A DNA stretch of 64,000 nt from Sedimentisphaerales bacterium (GTDB lineage: Bacteria; Planctomycetota; Phycisphaerae; Sedimentisphaerales; SM23-30). Below the pieces are notes generated by a model. The model made no database searches, was not told the origin of the DNA, and was given only the letters and a program-made list of their open reading frames with translations. The stretch is from assembly GCA_963666285.1 (NCBI GenBank), contig OY762711.1; one strand, given 5' to 3'. A program made the translations under genes and the position numbers. Positions 27,335 through 44,131 of this stretch are shown here, one piece after another (within the stretch, counting starts at the first letter, position 1; every line of letters starts with the position of its first letter).

Positions 27335-27629
27335 TGTATTTTAATAGATATTAGGTTTTAGGTACTAGGTATTAGGGAAGGAAACGCCCCGCCTGAGGCG
27401 GACTTCACTTCGTTCAGCTTCTGCGAGGCTAATGTATTGTTAGCTGACGCAAAAGTTGGCTCCTTTTATAATCGTTGTAATTATATAAGATATAATATTT
27501 TACGTTCAGAGAGTTATTTTTGTTCTGGCCAATAAAAACGGTCCGCACTTAACGGACCGTATGATATTATTATTTATATATAATCGACAGAATAGTGTTC
27601 TGTCATAAGAAAAATGTCAGTTTGGGCGG

Positions 27630-27944
27630 TTAGAATCCGTTAGGGTCGCTGCTGGTGTTGGTGTTCATGTCCATGCCCATATCCAAGCTATCGTCAGCGG
27701 CGGGTTCGGCTGTATCGGCAGCGACGGGAACGGGTTCGGCTTTGGCGACTGCGACGTCTTCGATAGAGCCTGTCTGCTGTATTTTCCTGGCGGTTTCGAG
27801 GTCGAGCTCAACGCTGGAAACGCTGGTGAGACCGTCGTATTTGTAGTCGAATGAAGCAGATTCTTCTTCATCGCAGGATACGACGAAGCATGCCAGAGAA
27901 GCTGTAATAGCAGTTAACCCTATTTTTTTCAGTACATTGCGCAT
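27630..27944 (-). CDS. Small lipoprotein, unknown function
   Basis: Signal peptide with lipobox-like FVVSC, acidic tail, GAGG upstream. Confidence 0.7.
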   Translation of the reverse strand: MRNVLKKIGLTAITASLACFVVSCDEEESASFDYKYDGLTSVSSVELDLETARKIQQTGSIEDVAVAKAEPVPVAADTAEPAADDSLDMGMDMNTNTSSDPNGF

Positions 27945-27973
27945 GTTTTGATACCTCTTGTGACTGTATTTTA

Positions 27974-28000
27974 CTCAAACTGTCCGATGGTCGGTTTGAG
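27974..28000. repeat. 27-bp palindromic repeat (family D)
   Basis: CTCAAACTGTCCGATGGTCGGTTTGAG; another copy at 28172-28198. Confidence 0.7.
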
Positions 28001-29041
28001 GGGCATTAGTTGTTAGGTATTGGGTATTAGGTAAGGATTGCCGCAGAGCGGCAGGCTAGCTAATTTCAACATAAAGAATTTTCTTACAATGTGTTATGTT
28101 AAAACATATTGTAAAATCACTCACTTTGGAATATTTTACATGATTAGATGAATATTTTCAATATTTAATTAGTCAAACTGACCGTTGGCCAGTTTGCGGG
28201 GGGGAAGAAATAAGGGATAAGGGCTGGATGCCGCTGAGCGATAAGTTTATTTAACTTTCTGCCTGGGATAGGGGTGTGTTTGCGGCCAGGGTGTGGCTAA
28301 AATTGAGGGTGGATGGATGTGGTGGTGGGGTGCGGGGAGGTGAAATTCGGTTTAAAAAACAAGGGCCTGTAAAGGGGGGTGGGGAGAGGAACGGCGGTGA
28401 AAAGAGGCAGCGCGGCGGGCGACGGCGGGCAGCGGCGGGGAACGGCGGGGAACGGATTGGACTGAAATTTGGTAAAATCGGGTGATTTTGGGGTTGGGCG
28501 GACCAGAAAATAAGTGATGAGTGAAGAGTTAAGTATGCTTCGCATGTCGCAAGCGAGTGAAGAATTGAGGTGTTCGCCTGGCGGCTCACAACTTGTTTTA
28601 AAGCTGACGCGTAGGTAAAGTTCAATCAAAATTGCGGCATCTGAAGGATGAGATATGAAGGATGAAGGATGAAAAGAGGGAGAGAGTTTAAATTCAAGAA
28701 GGGCGGCATCAAAGTGTAAAGGGTAAAATAAAAAGAGTAAAGGATGTGTCCGCATTCGCGGACGACTTGTTTTAAAGCTGGTGCGGGAGTAAGGATTGAA
28801 CCGCGGATGGAGGCGGATCGGCCTGAGGCGGGCTAAGAGCTAAATCACGAAACACGAGGAGAAGAGGTGGGTTGTCTGAAGTTTGAAGGTGTTTATGCCG
28901 GGGCGGGTTTGGTTGTTGGGGGTTAAAAAGGGGGGAGATTTAAGGGATTATTGCTTTGTTCCGATAGTATAATTATTATATATATGGTTATTTAAGATAA
29001 CTCCTGTATAATAAGATAATTACGAAAGGAATCAAGCTAAA

Positions 29042-29995
29042 GTGAGTCAGAAAGTCAGGACAATTGATCTGTTTTGTGGTGCAGGTGGCAGCAGCTGGGG
29101 GGCGTACTCTGCGGGTGCGGAGCTGGTAGCCGGATTTGATATGTGGGAGACGGTGAAGGATGTTTATAGGGAAAATTTCCCGAAAGCTGAATTTTTTTGT
29201 GGAAAATTAGAGGAAAGTACGCCACAATCGTTGAAAAGGAAAATTGGCAAGGTTGATCTGATACTGGCATCTCCGGAATGTACGAATCATAGTGTGGCCA
29301 AGGGTAATAAGCCCAGATGTGAAAAGAGCAAGGATACGGCGCTGCTGGTATTGAAGTTTGCGAAGGTATTTAAGCCTCGCTGGATGGTGATAGAAAATGT
29401 GGTCAGTATGAAAAACTGGGCTCGGTATCATGAGCTGATAGATGAGATTGAGTCGATGGGATATCATACTCAGACAGAGGTTTTGAATTCGGCTGACTTT
29501 GGTGTGCCACAGAGCAGACGCAGGATGTTTATTTTGTGTGACAGGAAGAGAAAGCCTGATCCGCTGAAAAAGAGTAAACGGAAAGTCAGACCGGTTAAGG
29601 AAGTAATTAATGGAAACGGCAAGTACAGGTATTCGCCGCTGATGATGCCGAAGCGGGCCAAGGCTACGTTGGAGCGTGCCGGACGTGCGATGGAAAACCT
29701 GGGTGAGAAAGAGCCGTTTCTGATTGTGTATTATGGGACAGACCATGCCGGAGGATGGCAGACGGTGGATGTGCCGCTGAGGACGATAACAACAATCGAC
29801 AGATTTGCTTATGTGAAGCCAACTGATGATGGCCATGTAATGAGAATGCTGCAGCCGGAAGAATTGAAACTGGCTATGGGGTGGCCGAAGAATTATCAGT
29901 TTAGTTTTGGCAGCAGACGAGACAAGATAAAAATGATAGGCAATGCGGTTTGTCCACCAGTGATGGAAGCGATTGTAAAGAATTTGATAAAGTAG
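29042..29995 (+). CDS. DNA (cytosine-5)-methyltransferase
   Basis: Motif I DLFCGAGG, motif IV ASPEC, ENV, PQSRRR, motif X IGNAVCP. Confidence 0.93.
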   Translation: MSQKVRTIDLFCGAGGSSWGAYSAGAELVAGFDMWETVKDVYRENFPKAEFFCGKLEESTPQSLKRKIGKVDLILASPECTNHSVAKGNKPRCEKSKDTALLVLKFAKVFKPRWMVIENVVSMKNWARYHELIDEIESMGYHTQTEVLNSADFGVPQSRRRMFILCDRKRKPDPLKKSKRKVRPVKEVINGNGKYRYSPLMMPKRAKATLERAGRAMENLGEKEPFLIVYYGTDHAGGWQTVDVPLRTITTIDRFAYVKPTDDGHVMRMLQPEELKLAMGWPKNYQFSFGSRRDKIKMIGNAVCPPVMEAIVKNLIK

Positions 29996-30002
29996 TTTAT
30001 TA

Positions 30003-32207
30003 TTGGAGTTAAAATTGGTTGATGACATTGGTTATTTTATAAAGCCTGCAGGAAGGCATATAATGACCATTGGTCGAGATTTAATTCATGACCAATGTGC
30101 TGCTGTTTTGGAACTAGTTAAAAATGCCTATGATGCAGATTCACCTCAGGTAACTATTTCATTACTTTGTAATAAAGACAAAGACGGCTTTAAGGTAGTA
30201 ATTGAGGATTCGGGTCATGGTATGACCAGGGATATTGTTATCAATAAATGGTTAGTACCTTCAACAGATGATAAACTTAAAAGAAAAGTTAGTCCCAAAG
30301 GCAGAACGATGCAAGGGAGAAAAGGTGTTGGCAGATATGCTGCATCAATTCTAGGTGATGATTTGCTCTTAGAGACTGTTTCAAGTAGTTGTGAACAAAC
30401 TACAGTATATGTTGAATGGAAGCGGTTCGAAAAAGCAAGGTTTCTTTCTGATGTTGAGATTCTAGTTGATACAGAAAAGACAAATCGTAGTACTCAAACC
30501 AAGTTAACTATCAATAACAATACTAGCTATAAGAATGTTTGGGATAATTTACAGATTAAAAAACTTAAATATGAACTTAAGAAATTGATATCTCCTGTTC
30601 ATGCTATTTCTGAATCAGAAAGCGATGTGTTTAATATTTTAATCAAATATGATGTTATCGAAGATGAGATTATTGATGGAGTTAAGGTTAGAGAAATTGT
30701 TGAGCACTATGAAGAGGAGATTAAGCCCTACCCTATTTTAGATTTATTTGATTATAAAATTTCAGGTACAATCAACAAAGATGGGTATGGTAAATTTAAA
30801 TATTACAATCAAAGGGTAAAGAATTCAATTGTTAAAGATGTGATTATTGATTTAGGGAAGACCACAGGATGTGGTGAAGTTACTTATGACTTAAGAGTGT
30901 ATGATCGAGAAAAAGAAGCTATTGATAATCTTATTTTGAGAGGCCTAAAAGACGATGATGGTAATTATGTAGGTAAATTACAGGCTAGGCAACTATTAAA
31001 TGACTATAATGGTGTTGGTGTCTATAGGAACGGATTTAGAATAAGGCCTCTTGGTGATGCTGATTTTGATTGGTTAAAGCTAAATTCCCAACGTATACAA
31101 AATCCTTCTTTAAAAATAGGAATTAATCAAATTATTGGGTTTGTTTATATCCAATCAGAAGAATTGTCAGGTTTGGAAGAAAAGAGTGCAAGAGATGGCT
31201 TACGTGAAAACGAAGAATATAAAAAGTTGATAGATATTACCCATAAAGTTATTAATGAACTTGAAAATAGACGATTTAGTTATCGCAAAAAAGCCGGACT
31301 TAGCCGTAAAGCAGTTAAGATTGAAAGAGAATTTGAAAAACTTTTTGAGTATAACAGTCTTAAAAAGAGAATAAAAAAGACACTTAGGAATAGTGGTGTT
31401 TTGCCTGAAATGGTGGATAAAATTTCTAATTTAATTGATTCAGAAGGAGAAACTAAAAATAAAGTAGCTGAAGAAATCAAAAGAACTGTAGCTATTTATC
31501 AAGGGCAAGCAACATTAGGAAGAATTGTTAATGTTATCCTTCATGAAGGGAGAAGACCGCTTAACTTTTTTAAAAATCAAGTAGATAATGTAAATTTTTG
31601 GGCTACTCAGCTTAAAGATAATTATTCACAGGAAGCCTTGGATGAAATTGTTCCAATTACAAATGGCTTCGGAGAAAATGCTAAGCATTTTGTTGAGCTA
31701 TTTGGGAGGCTTGACCCACTCGCGGCTAAAAAGAGAAATAAAGCTTGTCAAGTAGACCTTAATGAGACAATTCAAAGTGTGTTCTTAGTTTTTGAAAATG
31801 AACTTTTTGAAAATCAAATTAAATATTCAATCTTATGCCCCCAAGGTACAAAAGTATTTGGATGGAAACAAGATATTTATGTAATACTTACTAATTTGAT
31901 TGATAATAGTATTTTCTGGATGTTAGATAAAAAATCAAAGAAGAAAGAAATTACATTAACCATAGAAGTTTCTGATCAAAAGATAGTATTTATTGACTAC
32001 CGTGATACGGGGCCAGGTATAGAAAAAGAGCTTTTAGATAGTGGTGTTATTTTTGATCCAGAGTTTTCAACTAAAGACGAAGGGTCGGGTTTAGGCTTAG
32101 CTATTGCTGGAGAAGCAGCAAGTCGAAATGGTTTTTCCTTAAAAGCATTTGATTCTGACTCTGGTGCCTATTTCAGGTTACAACCAATTGAAGAAGATGA
32201 GGAATAA
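30003..32207 (+). CDS. GHKL (MORC/Hsp90-like) ATPase fused to histidine kinase
   Basis: N-terminal ELVKNAYDA, EDSGHGM, GRKGVGR; C-terminal H-box ILHEGRRPL, N-box NLIDNS, DTGPGI, FSTK..GSGLGL; no TM segment. Confidence 0.88.
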   Translation: MELKLVDDIGYFIKPAGRHIMTIGRDLIHDQCAAVLELVKNAYDADSPQVTISLLCNKDKDGFKVVIEDSGHGMTRDIVINKWLVPSTDDKLKRKVSPKGRTMQGRKGVGRYAASILGDDLLLETVSSSCEQTTVYVEWKRFEKARFLSDVEILVDTEKTNRSTQTKLTINNNTSYKNVWDNLQIKKLKYELKKLISPVHAISESESDVFNILIKYDVIEDEIIDGVKVREIVEHYEEEIKPYPILDLFDYKISGTINKDGYGKFKYYNQRVKNSIVKDVIIDLGKTTGCGEVTYDLRVYDREKEAIDNLILRGLKDDDGNYVGKLQARQLLNDYNGVGVYRNGFRIRPLGDADFDWLKLNSQRIQNPSLKIGINQIIGFVYIQSEELSGLEEKSARDGLRENEEYKKLIDITHKVINELENRRFSYRKKAGLSRKAVKIEREFEKLFEYNSLKKRIKKTLRNSGVLPEMVDKISNLIDSEGETKNKVAEEIKRTVAIYQGQATLGRIVNVILHEGRRPLNFFKNQVDNVNFWATQLKDNYSQEALDEIVPITNGFGENAKHFVELFGRLDPLAAKKRNKACQVDLNETIQSVFLVFENELFENQIKYSILCPQGTKVFGWKQDIYVILTNLIDNSIFWMLDKKSKKKEITLTIEVSDQKIVFIDYRDTGPGIEKELLDSGVIFDPEFSTKDEGSGLGLAIAGEAASRNGFSLKAFDSDSGAYFRLQPIEEDEE

Positions 32208-33296
32208 TTGATGTCTGTTTTTAACCTTTTAATTATAGAAGATGATGATCGTGATATCCAAATATGTAAATCTACAATTACAAGATATATGAAAGAAAAA
32301 AAACGTAATATTAATGTTGAATATTGTAAAGATAAAGAGTCAGCTTTGTCTATGATTTCAAACAAATTTGATGGAACAATTATCGATCTTAAACTTGATG
32401 ACACTGATGATTATGTCGGAAATGACCTTGTTAGTGAGATTCGGAAACGGTATAGAATACCGATTTCTATTTTGACGGGAACACCTGGTCAGTATGATGG
32501 AAAAGATGACTTTATTAAAGCATATAAAAAAGGGGAGACAGGGTATGGTGATATTCTTGATGTATTTTATGAGATTTACGATACTGGATTAACAAAGATT
32601 CTTGGAGGGAGAGGGTTGATTGAAGATCACATGACAGATATATTTTGGAGCAATATACTTCCTCAGTTAGAAAAATGGAAGCAGTATTGTACATGTGGCA
32701 AAGATACTCAAAGTGCATTATTGCGGGTAACACTAAATCATCTTATGGATGTTCTGGATGAAGATGCTGAAAGTTATTTTCCTGAAGAAATGTATATCAA
32801 TCCACCTCTAGCAAAAAGATATAAAACAGGAAGCATTGTGAAAAAGAAAGAATCTGAGGGAAAATATGTTATTCTTAGTCCTGCTTGTGATATGGCAATA
32901 AGAAATGATAAACCAAAAACTGATAGAGTATTGCTGTGTTGTATTGAGAGTTTCGTAAAAGGTAAGTCATTAATTAAAAAGGCAAATAGGGGCGAGGTTG
33001 AAATAAGAAGTAAGGCAATAGATCAAATTGATAGAATAATTAAAAATAACTGTGCATTATATTATCATTTTTTGCCCCAAACTATGCACTTTGAGGGAGG
33101 AGTTGTTAATTTTAGAAAAATTGAAACTTATTCAATTAAAGAGTTTCATTCATTATTTTCTGAAATTAAAGTACAGCTGACTTCACCGTTTATAAAAGAT
33201 GTTATTGCAAGGTTTTCATCATATTATGCTCGTCAAGGGCAACCTGATTTGAATTTTGATGAACTTAGAGACGAAATTGTTAACTATGAATTCTAA
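32208..33296 (+). CDS. Receiver-domain protein with uncharacterised C-terminal domain
   Basis: LIIEDD, IIDLKL (phospho-Asp), ILTG, YKK; C-terminal LSPACD...YYARQGQP with no recognisable HTH. Likely start ATG 32211. Confidence 0.8.
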   Translation: MMSVFNLLIIEDDDRDIQICKSTITRYMKEKKRNINVEYCKDKESALSMISNKFDGTIIDLKLDDTDDYVGNDLVSEIRKRYRIPISILTGTPGQYDGKDDFIKAYKKGETGYGDILDVFYEIYDTGLTKILGGRGLIEDHMTDIFWSNILPQLEKWKQYCTCGKDTQSALLRVTLNHLMDVLDEDAESYFPEEMYINPPLAKRYKTGSIVKKKESEGKYVILSPACDMAIRNDKPKTDRVLLCCIESFVKGKSLIKKANRGEVEIRSKAIDQIDRIIKNNCALYYHFLPQTMHFEGGVVNFRKIETYSIKEFHSLFSEIKVQLTSPFIKDVIARFSSYYARQGQPDLNFDELRDEIVNYEF

Positions 33297-33320
33297 GAAA
33301 GGCTCATTCTGTCTAGCTCC

Positions 33321-33794
33321 CTAAATCATAATCTTAGCTAACTCCAGGTTCTTTTTTGAGCAGCTAACATACCAGGCGTTCATCCGTTTGTCCCAGCTTC
33401 TGATTTTTAGAAATAGATCCCAGGAGAACTCGTGGATAGATTTCAGGGTAAGGTCGTTGTTGAGTTTGACGAGAAGCAAGTATTCAAATAATTGTTTATC
33501 CGGGTTACTGATGTCCGGATAAACTGTTCCTGTCTTTTTGGCTTTGAGGTTGGTCTTGATGGAATAGCGTTCACCGTCGCGAGAGATAGCATCGACGTTT
33601 TTTGTTCCAGTTGGGGCCGCGAATAGGACAGGCAGGCTGGCAGTGGAATTGAAATGCTCGATAGCAAGTTCTTCGCCGATATCTCCGATGCTGAAAGATA
33701 TACCCCTTTTACCCATTTCGACTTCCAGGGATGCTCTGAGTTTTTTAAGTTCGCTGTCAAATAGTTTTTCCAGATTTATGTTTTGTATTTTCAT
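33321..33794 (-). CDS. Putative small PD-(D/E)xK-fold endonuclease
   Basis: GDIGEELA...KNVDA...RYSIK pattern (E...D...xxK); located in methylase/Vsr cluster. Confidence 0.6.
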   Translation of the reverse strand: MKIQNINLEKLFDSELKKLRASLEVEMGKRGISFSIGDIGEELAIEHFNSTASLPVLFAAPTGTKNVDAISRDGERYSIKTNLKAKKTGTVYPDISNPDKQLFEYLLLVKLNNDLTLKSIHEFSWDLFLKIRSWDKRMNAWYVSCSKKNLELAKIMI

Positions 33795-33800
33795 GAGATT

Positions 33801-33841
33801 AATTTACCACTATTGCCTGATTATGTCAAGTGGTGTATAAT
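33801..33841. promoter_or_regulatory. Overlapping divergent sigma70-type promoters
   Basis: Minus strand: TTGACA (33829-33824)-17 bp-TAAATT (33806-33801). Plus strand: TTGCCT (33813-33818)-17 bp-TATAAT (33836-33841). Confidence 0.7.
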
Positions 33842-33909
33842 TGTTTTAACCGGATTGCTGATGTCCGGATAGTATTGGAAAAGAAAAAAACATAAAAGGA
33901 GTTTCTGTT

Positions 33910-34170
33910 ATGTATGATAAACAAATCGAATCAATTACTGATGTTCATGACTTTTTCACTTATCTTATTGATATTGAATCTCTGAATTTACACCCTGATA
34001 TTGAGTTTTCTGATTACGTATCCATTGCAAAGGGAGAAAAGACACTTGATGATAGTCAAGCTCTGCACTATCAGAAGTTACTTGACGATGCTTTTGCTGT
34101 ATGTGAAAAGTCCGGGATTTGTATATATGATATTGGTCTGAAAATATTTATGAGCAGGCTAAATAATTAA
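33910..34170 (+). CDS. Small acidic hypothetical protein
   Basis: AAGGAG RBS; 86 aa; stop abuts the vsr start; LNLHPD..F.DY motif. Confidence 0.7.
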   Translation: MYDKQIESITDVHDFFTYLIDIESLNLHPDIEFSDYVSIAKGEKTLDDSQALHYQKLLDDAFAVCEKSGICIYDIGLKIFMSRLNN

Positions 34171-34599
34171 ATGGCGGATGTGTTGACGAGAAAGCAGCGG
34201 CGATATAATATGTCGCAGATAAAGGGTAAGGATACGAAGCCAGAGATGGTAGTGCGTAAGCTGTTGCATGGTCTTGGGTATCGGTACCGGCTGCATGGCA
34301 AGGGGCTGCCGGGCAGGCCTGACCTGGTGTTTGCGGGCAGGAAGAAAGTGGTCTTTGTTAACGGGTGCTATTGGCATAGGCATGAATGTGAACTGGGTAG
34401 GCCGGTGCCGGGTACGAGGACGAAGTTCTGGTTAGAGAAGTTTGCACTTACGGTTGAGCGTGACCGGGAGAATTATGCGAAGCTTAAAGAGGGAGGCTGG
34501 GAGGTATTGGTTGTGTGGGAGTGTGAGCTTAAGGATATGGGGAAGCTGGAAGTGAAGCTGGTGGAGTATTTGAGGGAGAAGGAAAGCTTCGCTAAATGA
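34171..34599 (+). CDS. vsr: Very short patch repair endonuclease
   Basis: DVLT..QR.YNMSQIKGKDTKPE, LPGRPDLVF, GCYWH.H, GWEVLVVWECE. Confidence 0.95.
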   Translation: MADVLTRKQRRYNMSQIKGKDTKPEMVVRKLLHGLGYRYRLHGKGLPGRPDLVFAGRKKVVFVNGCYWHRHECELGRPVPGTRTKFWLEKFALTVERDRENYAKLKEGGWEVLVVWECELKDMGKLEVKLVEYLREKESFAK

Positions 34600-34786
34600 A
34601 AAATGAAAAGTGAAAATGAAAAGTTGAGGTGTCCTGAAGTACGTTGACATCAGGAATAATTTGCTGACGCGAGTTATTTTAAATCGCGCGGGTGGGAAAA
34701 TGCTTTACCACGAATGAACGCGAATAAACACCAATAATATATAAGGTGACTCGCTACCGCTCGTGTTTTATTAATAATATTTTATA

Positions 34787-34915
34787 TTATAGAACGATTC
34801 TTTCCCATTGTAATTTTGGATATTTTAAATTAAGGATTAGGCCCATACGAAGATTAGAAATTCTGAGGTAAATTATTATTTGACCTTTTTCGTTGCGGAT
34901 AAGTTTGCCAGCTAA
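34787..34915 (-). pseudogene. C-terminal remnant of a GxxExxY-family gene
   Basis: EKGQIIIYLRISNLRMGLILNLKYPKLQWERIVL* resembles the family C-terminus (Q..NYL....L..GL..NF....L...R.V). Upstream frame is repeat-derived. Confidence 0.55.
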
Positions 34916-35392
34916 AATATATAAGAGGTGAACCACGGATTCACACCGATGGACACTGATTTTATTGCTGAGGAGGCGAGCTACGCTAAATGAAAAGTGA
35001 AAAATGAAAAGTTGAGGTGTCCTGATGTATGTTGACATCAGGAATAATCCGCATTCGCGGACGACTTGTTTTAAAGCTGGCGCGGGAGTAAAGATTGAAC
35101 CATGAATCCGCCTGCGGTGGGAAAATGCTTTACCACTGAAATAACTGAGGAGACGGAAAAAGGAAATATGACATATACGACGTATGCGACATATAGGACA
35201 GATAGGACAAATAATGTCTGAGATCTGAAAAGATTGTGTTGCTGTTGTTCGACTTGCAGCGCTCGCTCAGGACAGGCGAGTGACCAAGTTTAAATCGGCT
35301 GGCTCCGAATATGCCGAGCTCCGCCTGAGGCGGATATCATTCAGCTCGGCGTTGGCAGGAATTATGAGTCGCTGCGCGACGGCTGGTTTATT

Positions 35393-35416
35393 GTCAGGCA
35401 GGGATGCCTGACCTAC
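35393..35416 (-). repeat. GTAG-type REP element
   Basis: Minus strand reads GTAG-GTCAGGCA-TCCC-TGCCTGAC: tetranucleotide plus perfect 8-bp hairpin. Confidence 0.65.
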
Positions 35417-35980
35417 TATGTCCTTAACGATGTTGGTTTGGATGGAGATTGGAAGATATTAAGCAGAGTGGTTTTGATAAGATTTGTCTCTCGCAGAGGA
35501 CGCAAAGCTCGCAAAGAAAGGGAGTGAAGTTAATGAAGGAAGGGAGAGGGAGAGGAAAAAAGTAAACGGTAAGAGGTGAGAGGTAAGAATTGATGTGTCC
35601 TGATGTACGTTGACATCAGGAATAATCCGCATTCGCGGACGACATGTTTTAAAGCTGGCGCGGGAGTAAAGATTGAACCATGAATCCGCCTTCGGCGGGA
35701 AAATGCTTTACCACGAATCAGAAGAGTTAGAAGCAAGAAGCGAGGAGGGAGAGGTACCAGGTAAAAAGTAAGAGGGAAGAGGGAAGAGTTGAGGTGTCCG
35801 CTTCGCGGACGGCTTGTTTTAAACGGCTAACGCCTAAAAGAGAACCACCGATAACCAATAATATAAGGTGACTCGCTACCGCTCGTGCTTTATTAATATA
35901 GGGGTGAGGTGGTTTAGGTGGTGTAAGTGGTTGTTATTTATGTGGTTATGGGGGTTTAGGGTAAAAAATAATAAATTAAT

Positions 35981-36028
35981 TTGCAAGTTGGTGTATGTGG
36001 GTGTATAGTGTATTATGTAAGTAATACA
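35981..36028 (+). promoter_or_regulatory. Promoter and putative YtrA/GntR operator
   Basis: TTGCAA-17 bp-TATAGT followed by and overlapping the palindrome TGTATTA-N6-TAATACA (36009-36028). Confidence 0.7.
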
Positions 36029-36241
36029 GTGATACTATAAGCAATAAAGCGTAGCTGTATTGCTTAGGAGTGAAGAGTGATGAACGAAGGGTGAAGAATT
36101 AAGGTGTCCCGATGTGCGTCGGGACCATATTTTAATGCTGACGCAAAGAATATCGACAAGTGCTTCATAGTTTGTTAATGCTGATGCCTGACAGGCGGAA
36201 GCAGTTAAGAACTAGAAATGAATTTTTAAGGTGGAACCTTA

Positions 36242-36646
36242 ATGTTAATAGAGTTAGATCATCATAGCGGCGTGCCAATCTATCGTCAGATAATCGATCA
36301 GATCCGGCATGCGATAATTGCCGGAGAGCTGGGCGAGGGCGAGCAGCTGGAGACAGTTCGCGAGCTGGCGGGTCGGCTGAAGGTAAACCCGATGACGGTA
36401 AGTAAGGCGTATTCGATGCTGGAGATGGAGAAGCTGGTGGAGCGAAGGCGTGGGATCGGGCTGTTTGCTGCGAAGGTTGACGGGCCTGATGTTGATGTTG
36501 CCAAACGAGAGATGGTGGCACAGGCGATGGATCAGGCGGCGATGACGGTAATACAGCTGGGTTGTGATGAGGAAGAGGCGGTTAGGATGTTCAGGGAGCA
36601 GATAAAGAAATTAAGAATTAAGGCCACCACTAAAAATTCATTTTAA
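36242..36646 (+). CDS. GntR-family regulator, YtrA subfamily
   Basis: PIYRQI..QIR..I..GEL..GEQL.TVRELA..L.VNPMTVSKAY..LE; short C-terminal domain; upstream of ABC genes. Confidence 0.92.
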   Translation: MLIELDHHSGVPIYRQIIDQIRHAIIAGELGEGEQLETVRELAGRLKVNPMTVSKAYSMLEMEKLVERRRGIGLFAAKVDGPDVDVAKREMVAQAMDQAAMTVIQLGCDEEEAVRMFREQIKKLRIKATTKNSF

Positions 36647-36702
36647 GCGAGAGGTGGATCTCCACCTTTCGCAATGAAAGCAATTTCCAGAGGTAACCTT
36701 AA
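36618..36702 (+). mobile_element. Internally deleted family B element overlapping GntR 3' end
   Basis: TTAAGGCCACCACTAAAAATTCATTTT...AAAGCAATTTCCAGAGGTAACCTTAA. Confidence 0.65.
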
Positions 36703-36804
36703 GAAATCATAAGATAAAAATAGTTAGAAAATATTACCATGAAGGGCTTAGATAGGTCAAGTGAGCAACCTAAGAAAGGTATTAGGTACTTGGTATTAGG
36801 TGTT

Positions 36805-36960
36805 AGGGGAGGAAAGCCGCAGAAGAGAGTTAATAAGAAACAAGTAATAAGAAATAAGTTAAGGAAGTGACTTTGGTGAAGCTGATTGTTTGAAAGCGGA
36901 AAATGAGGAAATATAGATGAGTGTTGTAACGGAAAATATGAAACATATATATCAGAATAG
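36805..36960 (+). repeat. ~155-bp direct repeat (leader + first 15 codons), copy 1
   Basis: Near-identical to 39506-39660 (about 7 substitutions and 1 indel by eye). Confidence 0.92.
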
Positions 36961-38353
36961 AAGCTGTCTGGTATTTATGATAATCGTGACGGCGATAACT
37001 GTGCCGGTCGATCTTATGTTGATGCTGTGCGGTGACCTGGAGAAGGTAAGCTGGCAGCTGCCAGGGATATGGTGGATATCGGTGCTGGCGTTTTCGCTGT
37101 CGGCGTTGCGGGTAGATATAATGACGAAGGGCTTTTCGTATTGTATGCCGGGGGGGAAAGGACTTGCGTGGCAGGTGCTGCTGGTTTTTGGAGCGGCGGG
37201 CGCGATAATATGGTCGCTGAAATCCGTGGTTTTGATGGTGATATATGGTTTTCTGAAGCCGTCGTCGGTAGTGTCGATGACTTTGATGATGATTATGGCG
37301 GCGCAGGTGTCGTATTATCTGATATTGTTCTGGCTGAACGCGTGGCTGGGTACGAAGATTAATATGCCGACCGGGATAGGAGTAGTGATCTTTGAGCTGC
37401 TTATTTTGAATAAATTTAAGATAGAGCCGTATGCCATGGAGCCAGTTCAGCAGGCGGTAGTTGTGATGGTCGGGCTGGTAGTAACGTATATGTCGTGGAA
37501 CTACTGGACCAGAAGCGGGATGGCGAAGGATTATATTGGCAAGGTGTGGATATGTTCGCTGGGAGATGCGAGCCAAAGCCGGATCGAGAAATCACAGCGG
37601 TCGAGAGCAGAGAAGGTGTATGAGAAAAAGGGTAAACAGATAGAAGGAGTGACCAGGGCCGAAGATTATTTTATGGGTAAGATTAACGCTGCCGAGCGCG
37701 GCAGTAAACGGCAGTATATGTGGGGCAGTATATATTGTCATTTCGGCGCGTTTATGCCGGAGAAGAAAGTTATATCGCTAATGATATTTGTATTCTGGGG
37801 GGCGTTGATAGGTGCGACGTCATATTCACGGAACATAAACGGTTTCTGGTTTTTGTTTCCGTTTATGATGCAAATAGTAACTATTTTAACCAAACGCGAT
37901 TTCATTATGGCGGGGGTATTGTGCGGTCGTGAGAATATCTATCGGTCGATTATTTCGGTAGTGTTTTACTGGTATCGAGCGATACTGGTTGTAATGGCAA
38001 TAGCGATGATATTTACGGCGGTATGCAAGCTGTTTTTGCCTGGTATAGAGATAGGTGGGAAAGTATATACACCTGAATTTAAGTCTCTGTTAATATTGCT
38101 TTTTGTTGGAACTATAGTCGAGTTTTATGTGCTTAGTTTGTGTTTACTGTGGTATATGAAACCTGTCTTGAGTATTGGTTACCTGGTATTGCAGCCGACA
38201 ATAATGATTTATTTGACGGTGAAGTGCTTTTTTCCGATGAACCCATATGTTTGTTTGTACGCTTTCGGCTGGATTTGCATTTGCCTTGGTATATTTATGA
38301 AGGTTTTGAAAATGTATTGCGAGCGGTGTGATTTGGTGGTGAAGAAGAAATGA
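36917..38353 (+). CDS. Putative ABC transporter permease, paralog 1
   Basis: About 12 TM segments in two blocks; shares F.YCMPG, MA..Y.GK, FM.KI...GS..Q..WG motifs with 42445..43884. Confidence 0.75.
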   Translation: MSVVTENMKHIYQNRSCLVFMIIVTAITVPVDLMLMLCGDLEKVSWQLPGIWWISVLAFSLSALRVDIMTKGFSYCMPGGKGLAWQVLLVFGAAGAIIWSLKSVVLMVIYGFLKPSSVVSMTLMMIMAAQVSYYLILFWLNAWLGTKINMPTGIGVVIFELLILNKFKIEPYAMEPVQQAVVVMVGLVVTYMSWNYWTRSGMAKDYIGKVWICSLGDASQSRIEKSQRSRAEKVYEKKGKQIEGVTRAEDYFMGKINAAERGSKRQYMWGSIYCHFGAFMPEKKVISLMIFVFWGALIGATSYSRNINGFWFLFPFMMQIVTILTKRDFIMAGVLCGRENIYRSIISVVFYWYRAILVVMAIAMIFTAVCKLFLPGIEIGGKVYTPEFKSLLILLFVGTIVEFYVLSLCLLWYMKPVLSIGYLVLQPTIMIYLTVKCFFPMNPYVCLYAFGWICICLGIFMKVLKMYCERCDLVVKKK

Positions 38354-38356
38354 AAG

Positions 38357-38412
38357 AGTGAGAAGAGAGAAGAGAGAAGAGAGAAGTGAGAAGAGAGAAG
38401 TGAGAAGAGAGA
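38357..38412 (+). repeat. Heptamer tandem repeat GAGAAG(A/T), about 8 units
   Basis: GAGAAGAGAGAAGAGAGAAGAGAGAAGTGAGAAGAGAGAAGTGAGAAG... Confidence 0.85.
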
Positions 38413-38500
38413 GGTAAGAGGTAGCGAGTAATAAGTAACAAGTAATGAGAAATAAGTTAAAGAGGAAAATCGATTTTTTTAGTAAATAAGAAAGGGAAAA

Positions 38501-39460
38501 ATGAAACAGATAGTAAGCATAATATTGATAATATTGGGAATTGTGACGTATTTATATTTTGGCAGGAAACCGGATCTATTGAAAGAGGCAATGTTTAGCC
38601 CGGCCGGCAAAATACAGATGCTGATCGATAAGGGGGCAGATGTAAATAAAGTTAACGCTAACGGTCAGAATATTTTGTATATAGCAGCGGGTAATAATCC
38701 GCATCCAGGTGTTGTAGAAGTTCTGGTTGATGCCGGTGCTGATGTAAAAGCGGCCGGTAGTGACGGCTGGACAGCACTTCATGCGGCGTTATATCGAAAT
38801 TCGTCGCCAGAAACATTGAAGCTGCTGATAGATCACGGGGCAGAAGTTAACCGGCAGGGTAAAGACGGCTGGTCGCCGTTTCATGTGGCGTGTAAGTCGT
38901 GCTGGAGTGTTGAAAGCCTGGAGCTGCTGATGGAGAATGGAGCTGACCTTTCGCTGAAGACGGGGGCGGGAGATACGCCGTTAATTTGTGCGGTGAAATA
39001 TAATAATGCGAAAGTGATAAAATACCTGATCGATGCTGGTGCGGATGTTAATGCCGCAGATAATGATAAGCGAAGTGTTTTGCATTTGGCCTGTGTATTG
39101 AATTGTAAGCCGGAGATAATAAAGCTGCTTATTGATGCGGGTGCTGATGTTGGTGCTCGTGAGAAGTTTAATTGTACTCCGCTGCATCTGGCGGCCGGGT
39201 GTGCGAACGATCCGGTGATAATAGATATGTTTGTGGAAGCGGGTGCAGATGTTAACGCACAGGATGACGGCGGTCGGATACCGCTGCATGTCTTGGGTAA
39301 GCGAACGGATAACCCTGGTATTGTCGAGGCGCTGGTAAGGCATGGTTCGGATCTGACGATACTGAATAAGAAAGGTCAGACGCCGTTGGAATATGCACGT
39401 GAGAAAAACAGTAAAGTAATAATCGAAGCTTTAGAGAAAGCTGGTAATAACTCAAACTGA
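38501..39460 (+). CDS. Membrane-anchored ankyrin repeat protein
   Basis: N-terminal TM; about 8 repeats of G.TPLH.A...LL...GADVN. Confidence 0.93.
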   Translation: MKQIVSIILIILGIVTYLYFGRKPDLLKEAMFSPAGKIQMLIDKGADVNKVNANGQNILYIAAGNNPHPGVVEVLVDAGADVKAAGSDGWTALHAALYRNSSPETLKLLIDHGAEVNRQGKDGWSPFHVACKSCWSVESLELLMENGADLSLKTGAGDTPLICAVKYNNAKVIKYLIDAGADVNAADNDKRSVLHLACVLNCKPEIIKLLIDAGADVGAREKFNCTPLHLAAGCANDPVIIDMFVEAGADVNAQDDGGRIPLHVLGKRTDNPGIVEALVRHGSDLTILNKKGQTPLEYAREKNSKVIIEALEKAGNNSN

Positions 39461-39477
39461 CCGATGGTCAGTTTGAG
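39451..39477. repeat. 27-bp perfect palindrome (family D)
   Basis: CTCAAACTGACC-GAT-GGTCAGTTTGAG; contains the ankyrin TGA stop. Confidence 0.8.
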
Positions 39478-39505
39478 AGGCATAAGAGATAAGGGATAAG
39501 GCATA

Positions 39506-39660
39506 AGGGGAGGAAAGCCGCGGAAGAGAGTAATAAGAAACAAGTAATAAGAAGTAAGTTACGGAGGCGACTTCGGTGAAGCTGATTGTTTGAAAGCGGA
39601 AAATGAGGAAATATAGATGAGTGTTGTAACGGAAAATATGAAGCATATATATCAGAATAG
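39506..39660 (+). repeat. ~155-bp direct repeat, copy 2
   Basis: Matches 36805-36960; the two start codons are 2700 bp apart. Confidence 0.92.
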
Positions 39661-41005
39661 GACATTACTATATGTACTATTTCTAATAACAATATTAGAT
39701 GTATATTTGATCAAGTTGGTTCCTTCGATTTATGTAAACAAGAACATATTAATATCTTCATCATGGATGTTTGCATTAGGCTTTTTGTTGTCTTCAAATA
39801 TTAAAGAACTATTGGCAATGGAATTGTCTTTTTGTATTCCAAATTATCAAAAGGAAATTAGAAAGTCGTTTTTTGTTATTGTGATATTTGGAGCTTTGGG
39901 ATGGTCACTTTTTAACCAAATTAGCCGTGCTAACATGATACCGTTAAACTGGATGTCTTTTATAACCGAACTGTTATTTTTGATGCTGGTTTTTTGGGCA
40001 GGTGCGTTCCTGGTAGGAGGTAAATCAAGTTTATACAGTTTTGTTATTGTTGGTATAGTTCTGTCGTTGACAATTAAGTATGGAGTGAATCCATATGTTT
40101 CAAATACTACGTTTCAAGTGATTACTATATTATCTGGAATAGTGGTAAATATTTCTGTATGGAGGAACATGGTTAGTCGCGACCTGGCGAGAGAGTTCAG
40201 CGGTATACCTTTCTTCGGATTAGGGACAAGTAATAACAAGAGAATGCAAAATAAATTAAAACATAGAATGAATTTGGGAACAGCTTGTAAAAGTGAGATT
40301 TTAGTTTCGCCTAAAGTTGAAGAATTTTTTCTTAGAAAAGTTTCAGACTCCGAATATGGAAGTATAAAGAAAAGCGTTTGGGGGAAATTATATCATTTAT
40401 ATTGTATATTAAAACCACAATATGCTGTTTTAATTTTGATTATTCTGGTTACTGCGCTGTGCCTGATATGCTATTTATTTGAGGCCGACAAAGAAAAGAA
40501 ATTAAATCCTGTTTTAATAATAATGTTATTTGGTAATTTATCATTAATAAAGCCAATGATTTATACAAATAATATTTATGAAGGAAGAAATCAGAGATTT
40601 ACTTTGGCATTAGTATATATATTTTTCCATTATTTATTAATAACATCAATAATATTTGTTGGGTATATATTCCCATTGATAATACAGGAATATATGCCTA
40701 GTATTAATATATTGGGTAAACATTTTGACTTTACATCACTTCCAATTGAAATTATTTTTATTCCAATTTACTCACTACCTGCAGCGTACAATCTTGGGAT
40801 TATATGGGAAATAAGTTATTTTCTAGGGGTTATTTATAGTGTGATATTGCTAGTGATAGTATCAATTATAATGGTATTGTACGAAAGAGGAAATGTAAAT
40901 TATTTATATACTTTGTGTAATGTAATTACTGTAATTAATCTAACAATGTTTATAGTGTTGATGAAGTGGTTTATAGGGCGAAGAGATTTAGTTAAACAGA
41001 GATAA
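39617..41005 (+). CDS. Putative ABC transporter permease, paralog 2 (AT-rich)
   Basis: Identical N-terminal MSVVTENMKHIYQNR; SFCIPN, LAREFSG, VEEFFLRKV...GS...WG motifs; multiple TMs. Confidence 0.75.
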   Translation: MSVVTENMKHIYQNRTLLYVLFLITILDVYLIKLVPSIYVNKNILISSSWMFALGFLLSSNIKELLAMELSFCIPNYQKEIRKSFFVIVIFGALGWSLFNQISRANMIPLNWMSFITELLFLMLVFWAGAFLVGGKSSLYSFVIVGIVLSLTIKYGVNPYVSNTTFQVITILSGIVVNISVWRNMVSRDLAREFSGIPFFGLGTSNNKRMQNKLKHRMNLGTACKSEILVSPKVEEFFLRKVSDSEYGSIKKSVWGKLYHLYCILKPQYAVLILIILVTALCLICYLFEADKEKKLNPVLIIMLFGNLSLIKPMIYTNNIYEGRNQRFTLALVYIFFHYLLITSIIFVGYIFPLIIQEYMPSINILGKHFDFTSLPIEIIFIPIYSLPAAYNLGIIWEISYFLGVIYSVILLVIVSIIMVLYERGNVNYLYTLCNVITVINLTMFIVLMKWFIGRRDLVKQR

Positions 41006-41035
41006 TGACAATTTTTGGTATTTTAATGAACAGCT

Positions 41036-41941
41036 ATGTATAAGGATAGAATTATGGAAAACGGGAAAGTTATAGTAGAGATTAGTGATGTTGTTAAGCG
41101 GTTTAAGAGTAAGGTTGCTTTGGACGGTGTGAGCCTGACGGTTGATCGCGGTCGGATAATCGGGCTGCTGGGCGCGAATGGTGCCGGTAAGAGTACGCTG
41201 CTGCGTCATATGATCGGATTGTACCTGTCGAACGAGGGCGCATGCCGGACGTTCGGTGTTGAAGCGTCTAAGCTTGGCCCGGGCGAGCTTGGCCGGATCG
41301 GTTATGTTCACCAGGAAGGTGAGCTGCTGGAGTGGATGAGTGTCGGTCAGCTGATCCGATATGTGAGCGCGTATTATAAGAGTTGGGATAAGCAGCTGGA
41401 AGAAAAATATATCGCCGACTTTGATATTAATGTTAAGGATCGGGTAGGCTCGCTGTCGCCGGGTCAGCGTCAGAAGCTGTCGATTTTGCTGGCGATCGGT
41501 TTTATGCCGGAGCTGCTGATACTGGATGAGCCTGCGTCGGCTTTGGACCCGATAGCGCGTGGCCAGTTTCTTGATCTGCTGCTGCATCTGATCCAGGATG
41601 AGAATCGTACGATAATAATCTCGTCGCATATCCTGAGCGATGTCGAGAAGGTAATCGATCATACGGTGATAATGCGTAATGGCAAGATATTGCGTGATTG
41701 CAGTTTTGACGATCTGCGTGAGGAGTTTATGAAGGTTGTGCTGACGGCGGTTGACGGTGCTATGCCGGAGGAGCTGCCGTTTGCGATGATCGGATGTAAG
41801 CGGGACGGTAATAAGTCGAGCTTTTTTGCCCGTGCGATGGCCGAAGATGAGCTTAAGGCTAAGGCCGAAAGTGTTGGATGTGTGGCGGAGGTTAAGACTT
41901 TGAGCCTGGATGATTTGTATAAGATAGTAATAGAGAACTAG
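41036..41941 (+). CDS. ABC transporter ATP-binding protein (YtrB-like)
   Basis: GANGAGKST, LSPGQRQK, LILDEP, SSH. Start is possibly the second Met. Confidence 0.95.
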   Translation: MYKDRIMENGKVIVEISDVVKRFKSKVALDGVSLTVDRGRIIGLLGANGAGKSTLLRHMIGLYLSNEGACRTFGVEASKLGPGELGRIGYVHQEGELLEWMSVGQLIRYVSAYYKSWDKQLEEKYIADFDINVKDRVGSLSPGQRQKLSILLAIGFMPELLILDEPASALDPIARGQFLDLLLHLIQDENRTIIISSHILSDVEKVIDHTVIMRNGKILRDCSFDDLREEFMKVVLTAVDGAMPEELPFAMIGCKRDGNKSSFFARAMAEDELKAKAESVGCVAEVKTLSLDDLYKIVIEN

Positions 41942-42444
41942 AACTTCGCTAAATGAAAAATGAAAAGTGAAAAATGAAAAATTAAGGTGTTCGCCGGCGG
42001 CTCACAACTTATTTTAAAGCTGGTGCATATTTAGAGTTTATATCAAAATGTGGGACCTGAAGGATGAAAGAGTTCGAAGAAAGAAGCGAGGAGGGAGTGG
42101 AAAATTAAAAATTCAGAATTAAGAATTAAGAAAATTGGTTTGCAAGATGAATGTATTTTGTATTTTTGTCTCTCGCAAAGGCCGCAAAGCTCGCAAAGAA
42201 TATTATTTGGCCATGAAGGAAGGGGGGGAGGGAAGAGGTAAGAAGTAAGAGGTAAAAGGTGAGAGAAGAGAGAAGGGGGAAGAGGTAAGGTAGGTGTGCG
42301 GCGTTGTTTTAAATACTGACGGTGATGCTGAATAATCAGGAGTATGAACTATGGAAACGGTATTAGTGGTATTAAATATTTTATCTATTGGATGGAAGAT
42401 ATTGAGCTTAGTTAGAATTTAGACTTTAGTTTGCAGAATTTCAG

Positions 42445-43884
42445 GTGAAAGATATGAGTACATTAGGAATAAATTTCAGGCATGTGTATCAGAAGCGAGG
42501 GTTTCTGTTTGGTATGCTGACGTACTTTTTGTTTGCGTTTTTTATGGACTTTGCTTTGATGGTTCAAAGGGACGGTCGTGTTGCGGTGTATTATGCGTCG
42601 GCGATGGTGTGGGTCTTTTTCTTTGGTTCGATGATAGCAGCATTGTCGGTAGAGGTTTTGGCCAAGCCGTTTGCATATTGTATGCCGGGGCATCGTCCGA
42701 TCGTCCGAAAATTTCTGATGATATCCGGGATAGTGCTTTCAGCGGCCTGGTCGCTGAAGGGGCTGGCAATGGCGATGTGGCGGGAGCCGAATTTAAGTGT
42801 GGCGACGCTGGTGGTGCCGAGTGTGAGTGCGTTCTGGCTGTATACCGTTTTTTACTGGTGCGGGGTGTGGCTGACGATGCGAGCCAAAAGCTGGACGGTG
42901 AGTATCGCGTTTTTTCCGCTGGTGATGCTGCTGAATAATGTATTGTATATATTTGATACGCTCGAATATGTTATATTTCATTATCCTGCGTTGTCGATAA
43001 TAGCGGGCTTTGCTGTTAATTATGTCGTTTGGGTCAGGCTGGACGGCGGCAGTATGGCGCGGGAATATTGCGGTAAGTTGAGGGTAGGTGCATTTGATGA
43101 ATGGAACGTTGATAAGATGCAGCGTGTGCGTAAGGAGCGGCTTGCGAACGCATCGGAGTCAGCGACAAAGAAGTTAATGGTGGCACCGGCAGTAGAGCGA
43201 TTCTTTATGGCTAAGATATTGGCTTGTGAGCCGGGCAGTATGTCGCAGTTTGTCTGGGGCGGATTGTATCGCGTTTTTGGTATGGCTGCGACCCAATATT
43301 TAAATGAGATGATAAGATTTTTGATGATCATGGTGCCGATCATCTGTCTGCTGTGTTATATACCGGGCGATACCGGCCGGATAGTGTTTATAATGCCGGG
43401 GCTAATGTTTGTGAATATGGATCTTCAGGTTCGTTCGACGATGATGCCGATTGCGAGCCGGCGACAGCGGTTCCAGGCAGGTTTGATGTCGGCGATTGTC
43501 TGTTGTGCTGCAACAGTATTGCTGTTAATTGTTATGACGGAGTGGACGGTTCCGGCAGCGAGTTTTATGCCGGCGATAAAATACTCCGGTCATGAATGGC
43601 CATTTACCGGGATGCAAATACAATATGTATCAGCGTCATTTATTTTGATACCGCCGGCAATGGCATTAGGCTTATTGTTACCTAAAAAACCGTTCTGGCG
43701 TTTTCTGATTATGATGGTATTATTTCAGATAGCAATTTTTGGAATTCTTGTGATGGGTGTGTTTAAGCCGGGACTGGGGTTGGTTATAGGTCCTTTGAGT
43801 GTAGCGGTTATGACGATTATTAGCTGGGTAATATTTGTAGCGGTATTGAGCCAGGTATGTAAAAAAATGAACCTGGTAAAATAA
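42445..43884 (+). CDS. Putative ABC transporter permease, paralog 3
   Basis: N-terminal N.(R/K)H.YQ.R and internal motifs shared with paralogs 1 and 2; multiple TMs. Confidence 0.75.
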   Translation: MKDMSTLGINFRHVYQKRGFLFGMLTYFLFAFFMDFALMVQRDGRVAVYYASAMVWVFFFGSMIAALSVEVLAKPFAYCMPGHRPIVRKFLMISGIVLSAAWSLKGLAMAMWREPNLSVATLVVPSVSAFWLYTVFYWCGVWLTMRAKSWTVSIAFFPLVMLLNNVLYIFDTLEYVIFHYPALSIIAGFAVNYVVWVRLDGGSMAREYCGKLRVGAFDEWNVDKMQRVRKERLANASESATKKLMVAPAVERFFMAKILACEPGSMSQFVWGGLYRVFGMAATQYLNEMIRFLMIMVPIICLLCYIPGDTGRIVFIMPGLMFVNMDLQVRSTMMPIASRRQRFQAGLMSAIVCCAATVLLLIVMTEWTVPAASFMPAIKYSGHEWPFTGMQIQYVSASFILIPPAMALGLLLPKKPFWRFLIMMVLFQIAIFGILVMGVFKPGLGLVIGPLSVAVMTIISWVIFVAVLSQVCKKMNLVK

Positions 43885-44131
43885 TCACACAGTTTGAGGG
43901 CTCTTATCAGGCATGTTGGATATAAGGCCATTTATCGCAGTAGGTTATAAAGTGTTTTTTTGCTGATGATATATTAAATGTATTTTTGTGATATTTTGCT
44001 GGTGTATTGTATCTGCGTTCTGAATTTAGTATAATAGTCTGATACTTAGTTTCAGGCGGAAGTGAGCTTGATGCTGTGTGGTAAAATGATCAGGGGAACC
44101 TGATAAACAATGACAGGTATGGAGAGAATGT

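Follow-up and report, generated by a model that had tools for sequence, protein, structure and literature searches.

Gene pairs of the HEF_HK (PF19191)/Response_reg_2 (PF19192) type beside C5 methylases were predicted computationally by Bellieny-Rabelo et al. 2021 (PMC8011034), and in the parts of that paper covered here (all papers are cited for the parts covered) the receiver is assigned no output domain. Ambrosia (AbrRABCD; van den Berg et al., 10.1101/2025.09.30.679545) was validated as an anti-phage system in 2025 and requires the Asp of its REC domain. In Detocs (Rousset et al., 10.1101/2023.01.24.525353), a kinase phosphorylates a receiver-fused toxic effector, leading to abortive infection, and an Asp mutant loses defence. 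Prokaryotic MORC/paraMORC ATPases occur in restriction-modification (RM) systems (Iyer et al. 2008, PMC2292703), and GajC of type II Gabija combines a MazF-like fold and helical insert with abortive infection (PMC13069673). Here, we analyze a cassette (positions 29042..34599) in a 64,000-nt stretch (hereafter, the window) of contig OY762711.1 of a Sedimentisphaerales bacterium (GCA_963666285.1), which encodes a C5 methylase, a MORC-type ATPase/histidine kinase, and a receiver protein with a predicted MazF/CcdB toxin fold. The first-pass annotation of this DNA knew of no mechanistic characterization of such systems, although the 2021 prediction and the validation of the related Ambrosia leave the class less uncharted than this suggests. 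The general class is therefore already known, and what appears to be new is the candidate MazF/CcdB effector fold on the receiver.

The three genes lie on the plus strand and are separated by only 7 and 0 nt, in agreement with the tight spacing noted at first pass: a 317-aa C5-cytosine DNA methyltransferase (29042..29995; Pfam PF00145, E 9e-45; PADLOC DrmMII, E 1.5e-104), a 734-aa MORC-type ATPase/histidine kinase (30003..32207; Pfam PF13589 and PF02518), and a 362-aa receiver protein (32208..33296). The receiver comprises a REC domain (aa 3-127; 32214..32588), a helical linker, and an output domain (aa 203-346; 32814..33245), for which fold search (VIA), Foldseek, and conservation point to a MazF/PemK/CcdB fold with a helical insert. 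With the full-length receiver as query, REC matches took up the fold search results, and the output domain was therefore folded alone (aa 184-362, AlphaFold). Among the 48,161 chains searched, the top 15 matches to this model were all toxins of toxin-antitoxin (TA) systems (MazF, CcdB, Kid, ToxIN/AbiQ/CptIN, and other). The best of them was MazF-mt3 (Z 12.0, root-mean-square deviation [rmsd] 2.5, 102 residues aligned), 11 matches had Z >= 8, and the first unrelated chain followed at Z 4.4. Foldseek also ranked the MazF/CcdB family first in both the PDB (E 0.006) and viral models (E 0.002), with both values above E 0.001. The C-terminal domain had been described as unrecognised, which still holds for Pfam, where it has no match, and a MazF/CcdB fold is now predicted for it from the model. 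Its signature consists of P-x-C227-D228, H287, N-F-R 301-303, and R342-Q-G-Q-P346, and G208, P225, C227, D228, H287, F302, R335, R342, Q343, G344, and P346 are kept in 112-118 of 118 sequences. There was no match to the domain in PADLOC, and Atlas gave unnamed clusters only. A literature search that left preprint supplements and subscription journals outside its reach returned no paper reporting a MazF/PemK fold on these receivers, and the covered parts of PMC7824862, PMC7159879, PMC12839542, the Tiamat preprint, and DefensePredictor contain nothing on it, although a figure panel of the last includes HATPase/REC candidates.

To describe the distribution of the cassette, we used a screen for receiver homologues that identified 766 relatives among 2,852 candidates. 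The loci gathered number 85 (2 genomes, 80 metagenomes, 3 viral contigs), 72 of them below 90% receiver identity; one locus with a 31-residue match (L003) was excluded from every count, and a scan of genome contigs with a single protein yielded 3 loci. Both flanks were visible in 28 loci (hereafter, two-flank loci), and 63 non-redundant loci had enough flank to assess kinase adjacency. In 62 of these 63, the gene immediately upstream of the receiver encodes the MORC kinase, and 26 of the 28 two-flank loci have a C5 methylase within 2.5 kb. A vsr gene is found near the core in 17 of the 28 (15 by open reading frame [ORF] and two more by tblastn), followed in frequency by type I HsdR (5/28); in one locus (L001), a HhH-GPD glycosylase occupies the usual vsr position. 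Co-occurrence of the genes elsewhere, without which the first-pass proposal would have fallen, was thus found across genomes. The conserved unit is a mobile three-gene core of C5 methylase, MORC-ATPase/histidine kinase, and receiver, usually accompanied by vsr and without a fixed nuclease. The six-gene system proposed earlier is in this way reduced, given that its small nuclease and 86-aa ORF are not conserved members. Because no nuclease is conserved and the most frequent family after vsr reaches only 5 of the 28 loci, none of the neighbouring genes could serve as a constant effector.

The cassette is often found within or next to type I and III RM, Mza, Gabija, DISARM drmB, and EcoRII/MvaI genes. 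In three type I RM loci (L044, L069, and L076) it separates hsdS from hsdR (order hsdM-hsdS-[cassette]-hsdR), an interval that is also the position of the backup toxin PrrC. Relatives occur on 3 viral contigs and on 46 plasmid records (three inspected), 41 of which are Campylobacter plasmids; in the one Campylobacter plasmid inspected (L119), the receiver relative has the kinase on one side and a convergent C5 methylase on the other. Of 401 genomes of the phylum, only the organism's own contains a full-length receiver match. A profile of the output domain recovered 1,244 clusters at 50% identity (E <= 0.001), or 754 at 1e-10. The receiver had no match in the phage collection searched, and an Enterobacter copy had none in E. 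coli genomes (blastn).

The methylase retains visible FCGAGG, PEC80, and ENV motifs with the catalytic Cys80 intact. It is a 317-aa DrmMII-like type, unlike the ~420-aa methylase that is usual in the cassette (21-27% identity) and closer to the frameshifted copy at L040 (53-59%). Across loci, the ~420-aa type was found in 49, an EcoRII/MvaI-associated type in 4, and the 317-aa type in the window and L040. These comparisons indicate that the methylase is exchangeable and that what stays constant is the link to cytosine methylation, whichever enzyme provides it. The 317-aa type also heads another cassette (L172:7090-12651) consisting of vsr, methylase, a 717-aa MORC kinase, a 478-aa receiver, and a 292-aa ORF, and this 478-aa receiver had no match to the MazF-fold profile. 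Genome k-mer depletion gave no methylase target (CCWGG ratio 1.07). Two known architectures were rejected: DISARM class II, because the DrmMII match is flanked in 22-42 kb by no helicase, PLD, or drm-sized ORF, and a classical type II RM system, because no conserved nuclease is linked to the methylase. EcoRII/MvaI-type enzymes were present only in L036/L038, L046, and L065.

The 734-aa protein is soluble and contains a paraMORC-type GHKL ATPase (about aa 15-170), followed by a DHp helix with H514 and a kinase ATP-binding domain (aa 500-727). The two GHKL folds reported earlier are borne out by Pfam matches to HATPase_c_3 at the N-terminus and HATPase_c at the C-terminus, and a FixL-type kinase was matched over aa 483-727; the middle region may be S5-like, by analogy with proteins in PMC2292703. 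Both ATP sites are conserved: the MORC motifs (E37, N41, D69, G71/G73, and K107-G108-x-G110-R111) are kept in 44-45 of 45 non-redundant kinases, as are the N, G1, F, and G2 boxes, and H514 is present in all 45. At the H+4 position, 44 of 45 kinases have R, K, or Q, and the phosphatase-linked Thr/Asn is thus absent. This signature is likewise missing in PF19191 (10.64898/2026.02.27.708494). In the receiver, E11/D12, the phospho-acceptor D60, T90, and K108 are all present, and the REC fold, for which the Pfam scan of the receiver gave no match, is backed by a predicted model and fold search (VIA Z 15.4, rmsd 2.2, 124 residues aligned). The intact Asp seen at first pass is invariant (D60, 118/118), with T/S90 and K/R108 each kept in 117 of 118 sequences and D12 in 115-117.

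Compared to HEF_HK/Response_reg_2 pairs, the cassette shares a soluble HATPase_c_3-DHp-HATPase_c kinase, an adjacent receiver, dcm upstream, and vsr downstream (PMC8011034). However, the window kinase has no PF19191 match at E 0.1 (its H-box reads HEGRRP), whereas the kinase of a control locus (L124) matched at 8e-25, and the window receiver has no PF19192 match, whereas the L124 control scored 4e-18. Among the matches listed, PF19192 was found in 0 of 70 receivers, and it was not found in the organism's own genome. The window receiver family is also shorter, about 360 aa with a near-canonical REC, than the 530-600 aa proteins of PMC8011034. With Ambrosia, the cassette has in common a methylase, a HATPase/histidine kinase, and a REC protein (the phospho-residues are conserved in the cassette family), but Ambrosia has an N6-adenine instead of a C5 methylase, a REC-winged-helix-turn-helix output instead of REC with a predicted MazF fold, and an XRE repressor and a required HNH nuclease, neither of which is in the window or belongs to a family recurring in the 28 two-flank loci (10.1101/2025.09.30.679545). 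In Detocs, an effector stands on the receiver where a DNA-binding domain would otherwise be, and the window receiver may be built likewise, given its predicted toxin-like fold. Detocs differs in its TPR sensor and stand-alone buffer receiver DtcB, both absent from the cassette, where the sensor is a GHKL ATPase; its effectors are PNP, nuclease, or hydrolase, and no methylase or MORC clamp appears in the passages covered (10.1101/2023.01.24.525353). The MORC/paraMORC systems of Iyer et al. likewise place an N-terminal GHKL ATPase beside a cytosine methylase and Vsr, yet the cassette lacks a conserved SF2 helicase/nuclease partner and its ATPase is fused to a histidine kinase (PMC2292703). Finally, the output domain has the predicted fold in common with MazF/PemK/Kid/CcdB and ToxN/AbiQ, and with GajC also a helical insertion, but it shows no sequence similarity to these proteins, does not keep the catalytic Arg/Thr, comes with no antitoxin gene, and is fused to a receiver. 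The cassette therefore matches neither PF19191/PF19192 nor, in full, Ambrosia or Detocs; a full match to a characterized system would have spoken against the first-pass proposal. It resembles Ambrosia in its chassis and Detocs in its proposed effector, but belongs to neither.

We favor, at somewhat better than even chances, the interpretation that the cassette is a phosphorylation-gated toxin that causes abortive infection when its MORC-type ATPase senses disturbed methylation. The methylase would mark host DNA, and Vsr would repair the resulting T:G mismatches. The ATP-gated MORC clamp may respond to DNA that is unmethylated or hemimethylated, or to a phage attacking the methylase, upon which H514 would pass phosphate to D60. 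Because the Thr/Asn linked to phosphatase activity is absent, the switch may work in one direction only. Phosphorylation of D60 would then activate the toxin domain, probably via dimerization, and the infected cell would likely be halted; activation by phosphorylation is favored because Asp mutants lose defence in both Ambrosia and Detocs. With regard to the target, we lean slightly toward a non-canonical site (Cys227, Asp228, His287, and Arg342) that would cleave RNA, over CcdB-like protein poisoning. The phosphorylation-gated toxin is supported by the fold matches, core linkage, intact phosphorelay, defence-gene context, the TA-like layout of stand-alone relatives (described below), and the precedents Detocs, Ambrosia, and GajC. 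The earlier proposal of a phosphorelay-gated restriction or abortive system is accordingly retained as a defence or abortive system, on the strength of co-occurrence, defence-island context, and the intact phosphorelay; of the two effectors it had named, the receiver C-terminal domain gained a predicted MazF/CcdB fold and the small nuclease, seen only in L040 of 85 loci, found no such support.

Several observations weigh against this interpretation. The fold rests on a single AlphaFold model (pLDDT 78.8), and a shared fold alone shows no function. The output domain had no PemK or CcdB match in Pfam, a profile search of PDB sequences gave nothing, and hhalign against 13 MazF homologues returned a probability of 0.1. 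MazF catalysis depends on an Arg before beta2 and a Thr after beta3, and these positions are not kept: residues 218-219 are variable and 247 is mostly acidic (E66/D21), in a register set by eye on 13 MazF homologues from 30 loci and not by structural alignment. The domain also has a short beta1-beta2 loop, a feature that CcdB has as well. At one locus (L072), the kinase and receiver are present but the visible flanks contain no methylase. Lastly, Ambrosia is non-toxic during defence, and a transcriptional action was proposed for it (10.1101/2025.09.30.679545).

A non-toxic role would be in line with the absence of the canonical MazF catalytic residues. The kinase-receiver pair could, in an Ambrosia-like manner, control the expression or activity of the methylase and neighbouring RM enzymes, with the MazF-fold domain binding RNA, DNA, or a partner protein; regulation was proposed in both PMC8011034 and the Ambrosia paper (10.1101/2025.09.30.679545), and RM loci frequently enclose the cassette, as in the three hsdM-hsdS-[cassette]-hsdR arrangements (L044, L069, L076). 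We nevertheless regard regulation alone as unlikely, given that the receiver has no helix-turn-helix output domain, unlike AbrC, that the neighbouring nucleases are of unrelated kinds with none in more than 5 of 28 loci, and that stand-alone relatives of the domain occur in TA-like operons without a kinase or methylase. The same anatomy that suggests a phosphorylation-gated toxin would also fit a selfish addiction module, in which the methylase acts as antidote. Once the element is lost, methylation would be diluted, which would trigger the MORC kinase and with it the lethal toxin; phage defence would then be incidental or absent. CcdB and Kid are plasmid-addiction toxins, and relatives of the cassette are present on plasmids (41 of 46 records from Campylobacter). 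However, the cassette is recurrently located among anti-phage systems and its validated relatives, Ambrosia and Detocs, are anti-phage, so that we consider addiction a still weaker candidate than regulation.

The remaining explanation, and in our judgment the least probable, assigns the local effector to the 157-aa nuclease (33321..33794, minus strand), a PD-(D/E)xK-type accessory protein that would cut m5C DNA under phosphorelay control, as was proposed for the type IV HNH nuclease of Ambrosia. The protein resembles methyl-directed restriction enzymes (PADLOC mREase_II, E 2e-51; Pfam DUF6998 below cut-off), it has a high GC content at third codon positions (GC3) in common with the methylase and vsr, and L040 shares both the methylase type and a convergent nuclease. 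On the other side, the nuclease is missing from 84 of 85 related loci, its gene is on the opposite strand, the L040 methylase is frameshifted, and its plasmid relatives near dcm/vsr have no kinase-receiver pair annotated nearby. These relatives are near dcm/vsr in two of three records (L169 and L170, not L171). No match to the nuclease was found in the PDB, in 300 other genomes of the phylum, or in viral contigs. In the window, L040, L169, and L170, it repeatedly lies beside a C5 methylase and vsr, which would be a surprising combination for an enzyme that cuts m5C DNA.

Downstream of the nuclease are an acidic 86-aa ORF (33910..34170, plus strand), for which Pfam, PADLOC, and TIGR-type scans gave no family match and an Atlas lead remained below 0.9, and a 142-aa Vsr T:G mismatch endonuclease (34171..34599, plus strand; TIGR00632, E 4e-43; Pfam Vsr, E 1e-30). 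The 86-aa ORF has one homologue, 39% identical, in L053. The nuclease and this ORF are passengers.

Outside the cassette, stand-alone relatives of the output domain (184-292 aa; profile E 3e-13 to 4e-11) show the same C-D and R/K-x-G pattern. They follow a TIGR04255 gene in three of six loci examined (L121, L122, and L162, by HMM or annotation); the upstream gene of L160 is similar in appearance, and that of L123 had no match. At L121:7431-9055, L122:8295-9398, L160:530-2085, and L162:3015-4543, a TIGR04255-type gene is followed by a small ORF or a short gap and then by a stand-alone MazF-fold relative. The operon members scanned had no PADLOC match, and judging from their layout they are possibly an undescribed toxin-antitoxin-chaperone-like system. 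Two sister cassettes (L125 and L126) keep the output-domain motifs. The C-termini of four PF19192 proteins are weakly similar to the output domain (hhalign probability 27%), and three of the four outscored every one of 204 controls with both profiles used, which is only suggestive. Taken together, we tentatively propose, at a little under even chances, a large unrecognised MazF/CcdB-fold clade with a C-D ... R-x-G-x-P active site of its own that would be gated by His-Asp phosphorylation and not by an antitoxin, wired to a methylation-reading MORC clamp, and that may also arm Response_reg_2 systems and TIGR04255 operons.

All six ORFs were found where the first-pass annotation had placed them, with intergenic gaps of 7, 0, 24, 115, and 0 nt in order, and the AT-richness it had noted in the kinase (GC 32.7%, GC3 0.22) and receiver (31.3%, 0.21) is evident against the methylase (46.9%), vsr (52.2%), and the genome (41%). 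The kinase, receiver, and 86-aa genes (GC 31-33%, GC3 0.21-0.26) and the methylase, nuclease, and vsr genes (GC 42-52%, GC3 0.51-0.64) form two compositional classes, and the block is therefore a mosaic. A single unbroken contig in a public run, which may be the source sample, spans 28763-34733 with zero differences; a read joint skipping 28745-35595 was set aside, because it was supported by only 27 letters of repeat.

The spacers on both sides (27350-29040 and 34600-36800) contain several dispersed repeat families, some palindromic, which are enriched near 5.5-6.0 Mb of contig C1. A 54-nt repeat (28749..28802, plus strand; 13 copies in the genome) has a 96% identical copy at 35048-35101, so that the two flank the cassette on opposite sides, and the right spacer includes 130-nt direct repeats (35007-35136 and 35585-35714, within 35007..35714) that hold palindromic units of genome-wide repeat families. 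The bounding repeats described at first pass are thus present, but five of six repeats tested have 7-79 copies each genome-wide; these are dispersed families and not dedicated ends of the cassette, and we rejected that interpretation. An empty insertion site was not demonstrable in five relatives, where the flanking genes were non-syntenic or not found. A 27-nt imperfect palindrome occurs inside the nuclease gene (33495-33521) and just upstream of it (33845-33871; 89% identical). Further downstream (36242-41941), ORFs read by eye encode a GntR regulator, paralogous membrane proteins (478 and 462 aa), an ankyrin protein, and an ABC ATPase. Within 28000-44000, GC skew increases at about 28 kb from near 0 to at least +0.3. 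Genome-wide, its sign flips near 5.74 Mb, some 20 kb ahead of the first position of the window; the window may be close to a replichore boundary.

Methylase-MORC kinase-receiver cassettes are common, and the predicted toxin fold supplies a concrete candidate effector and makes the class testable. If the interpretation is correct, phosphorylation would here take the place of an antitoxin in controlling a MazF-fold toxin. The cassette would also offer a way to assay the signal detected by a bacterial MORC ATPase, a question relevant to how eukaryotic MORC chromatin proteins arose. If the wider clade is real, the coupling of methylation-state sensing to a toxin would be a widespread immune design.

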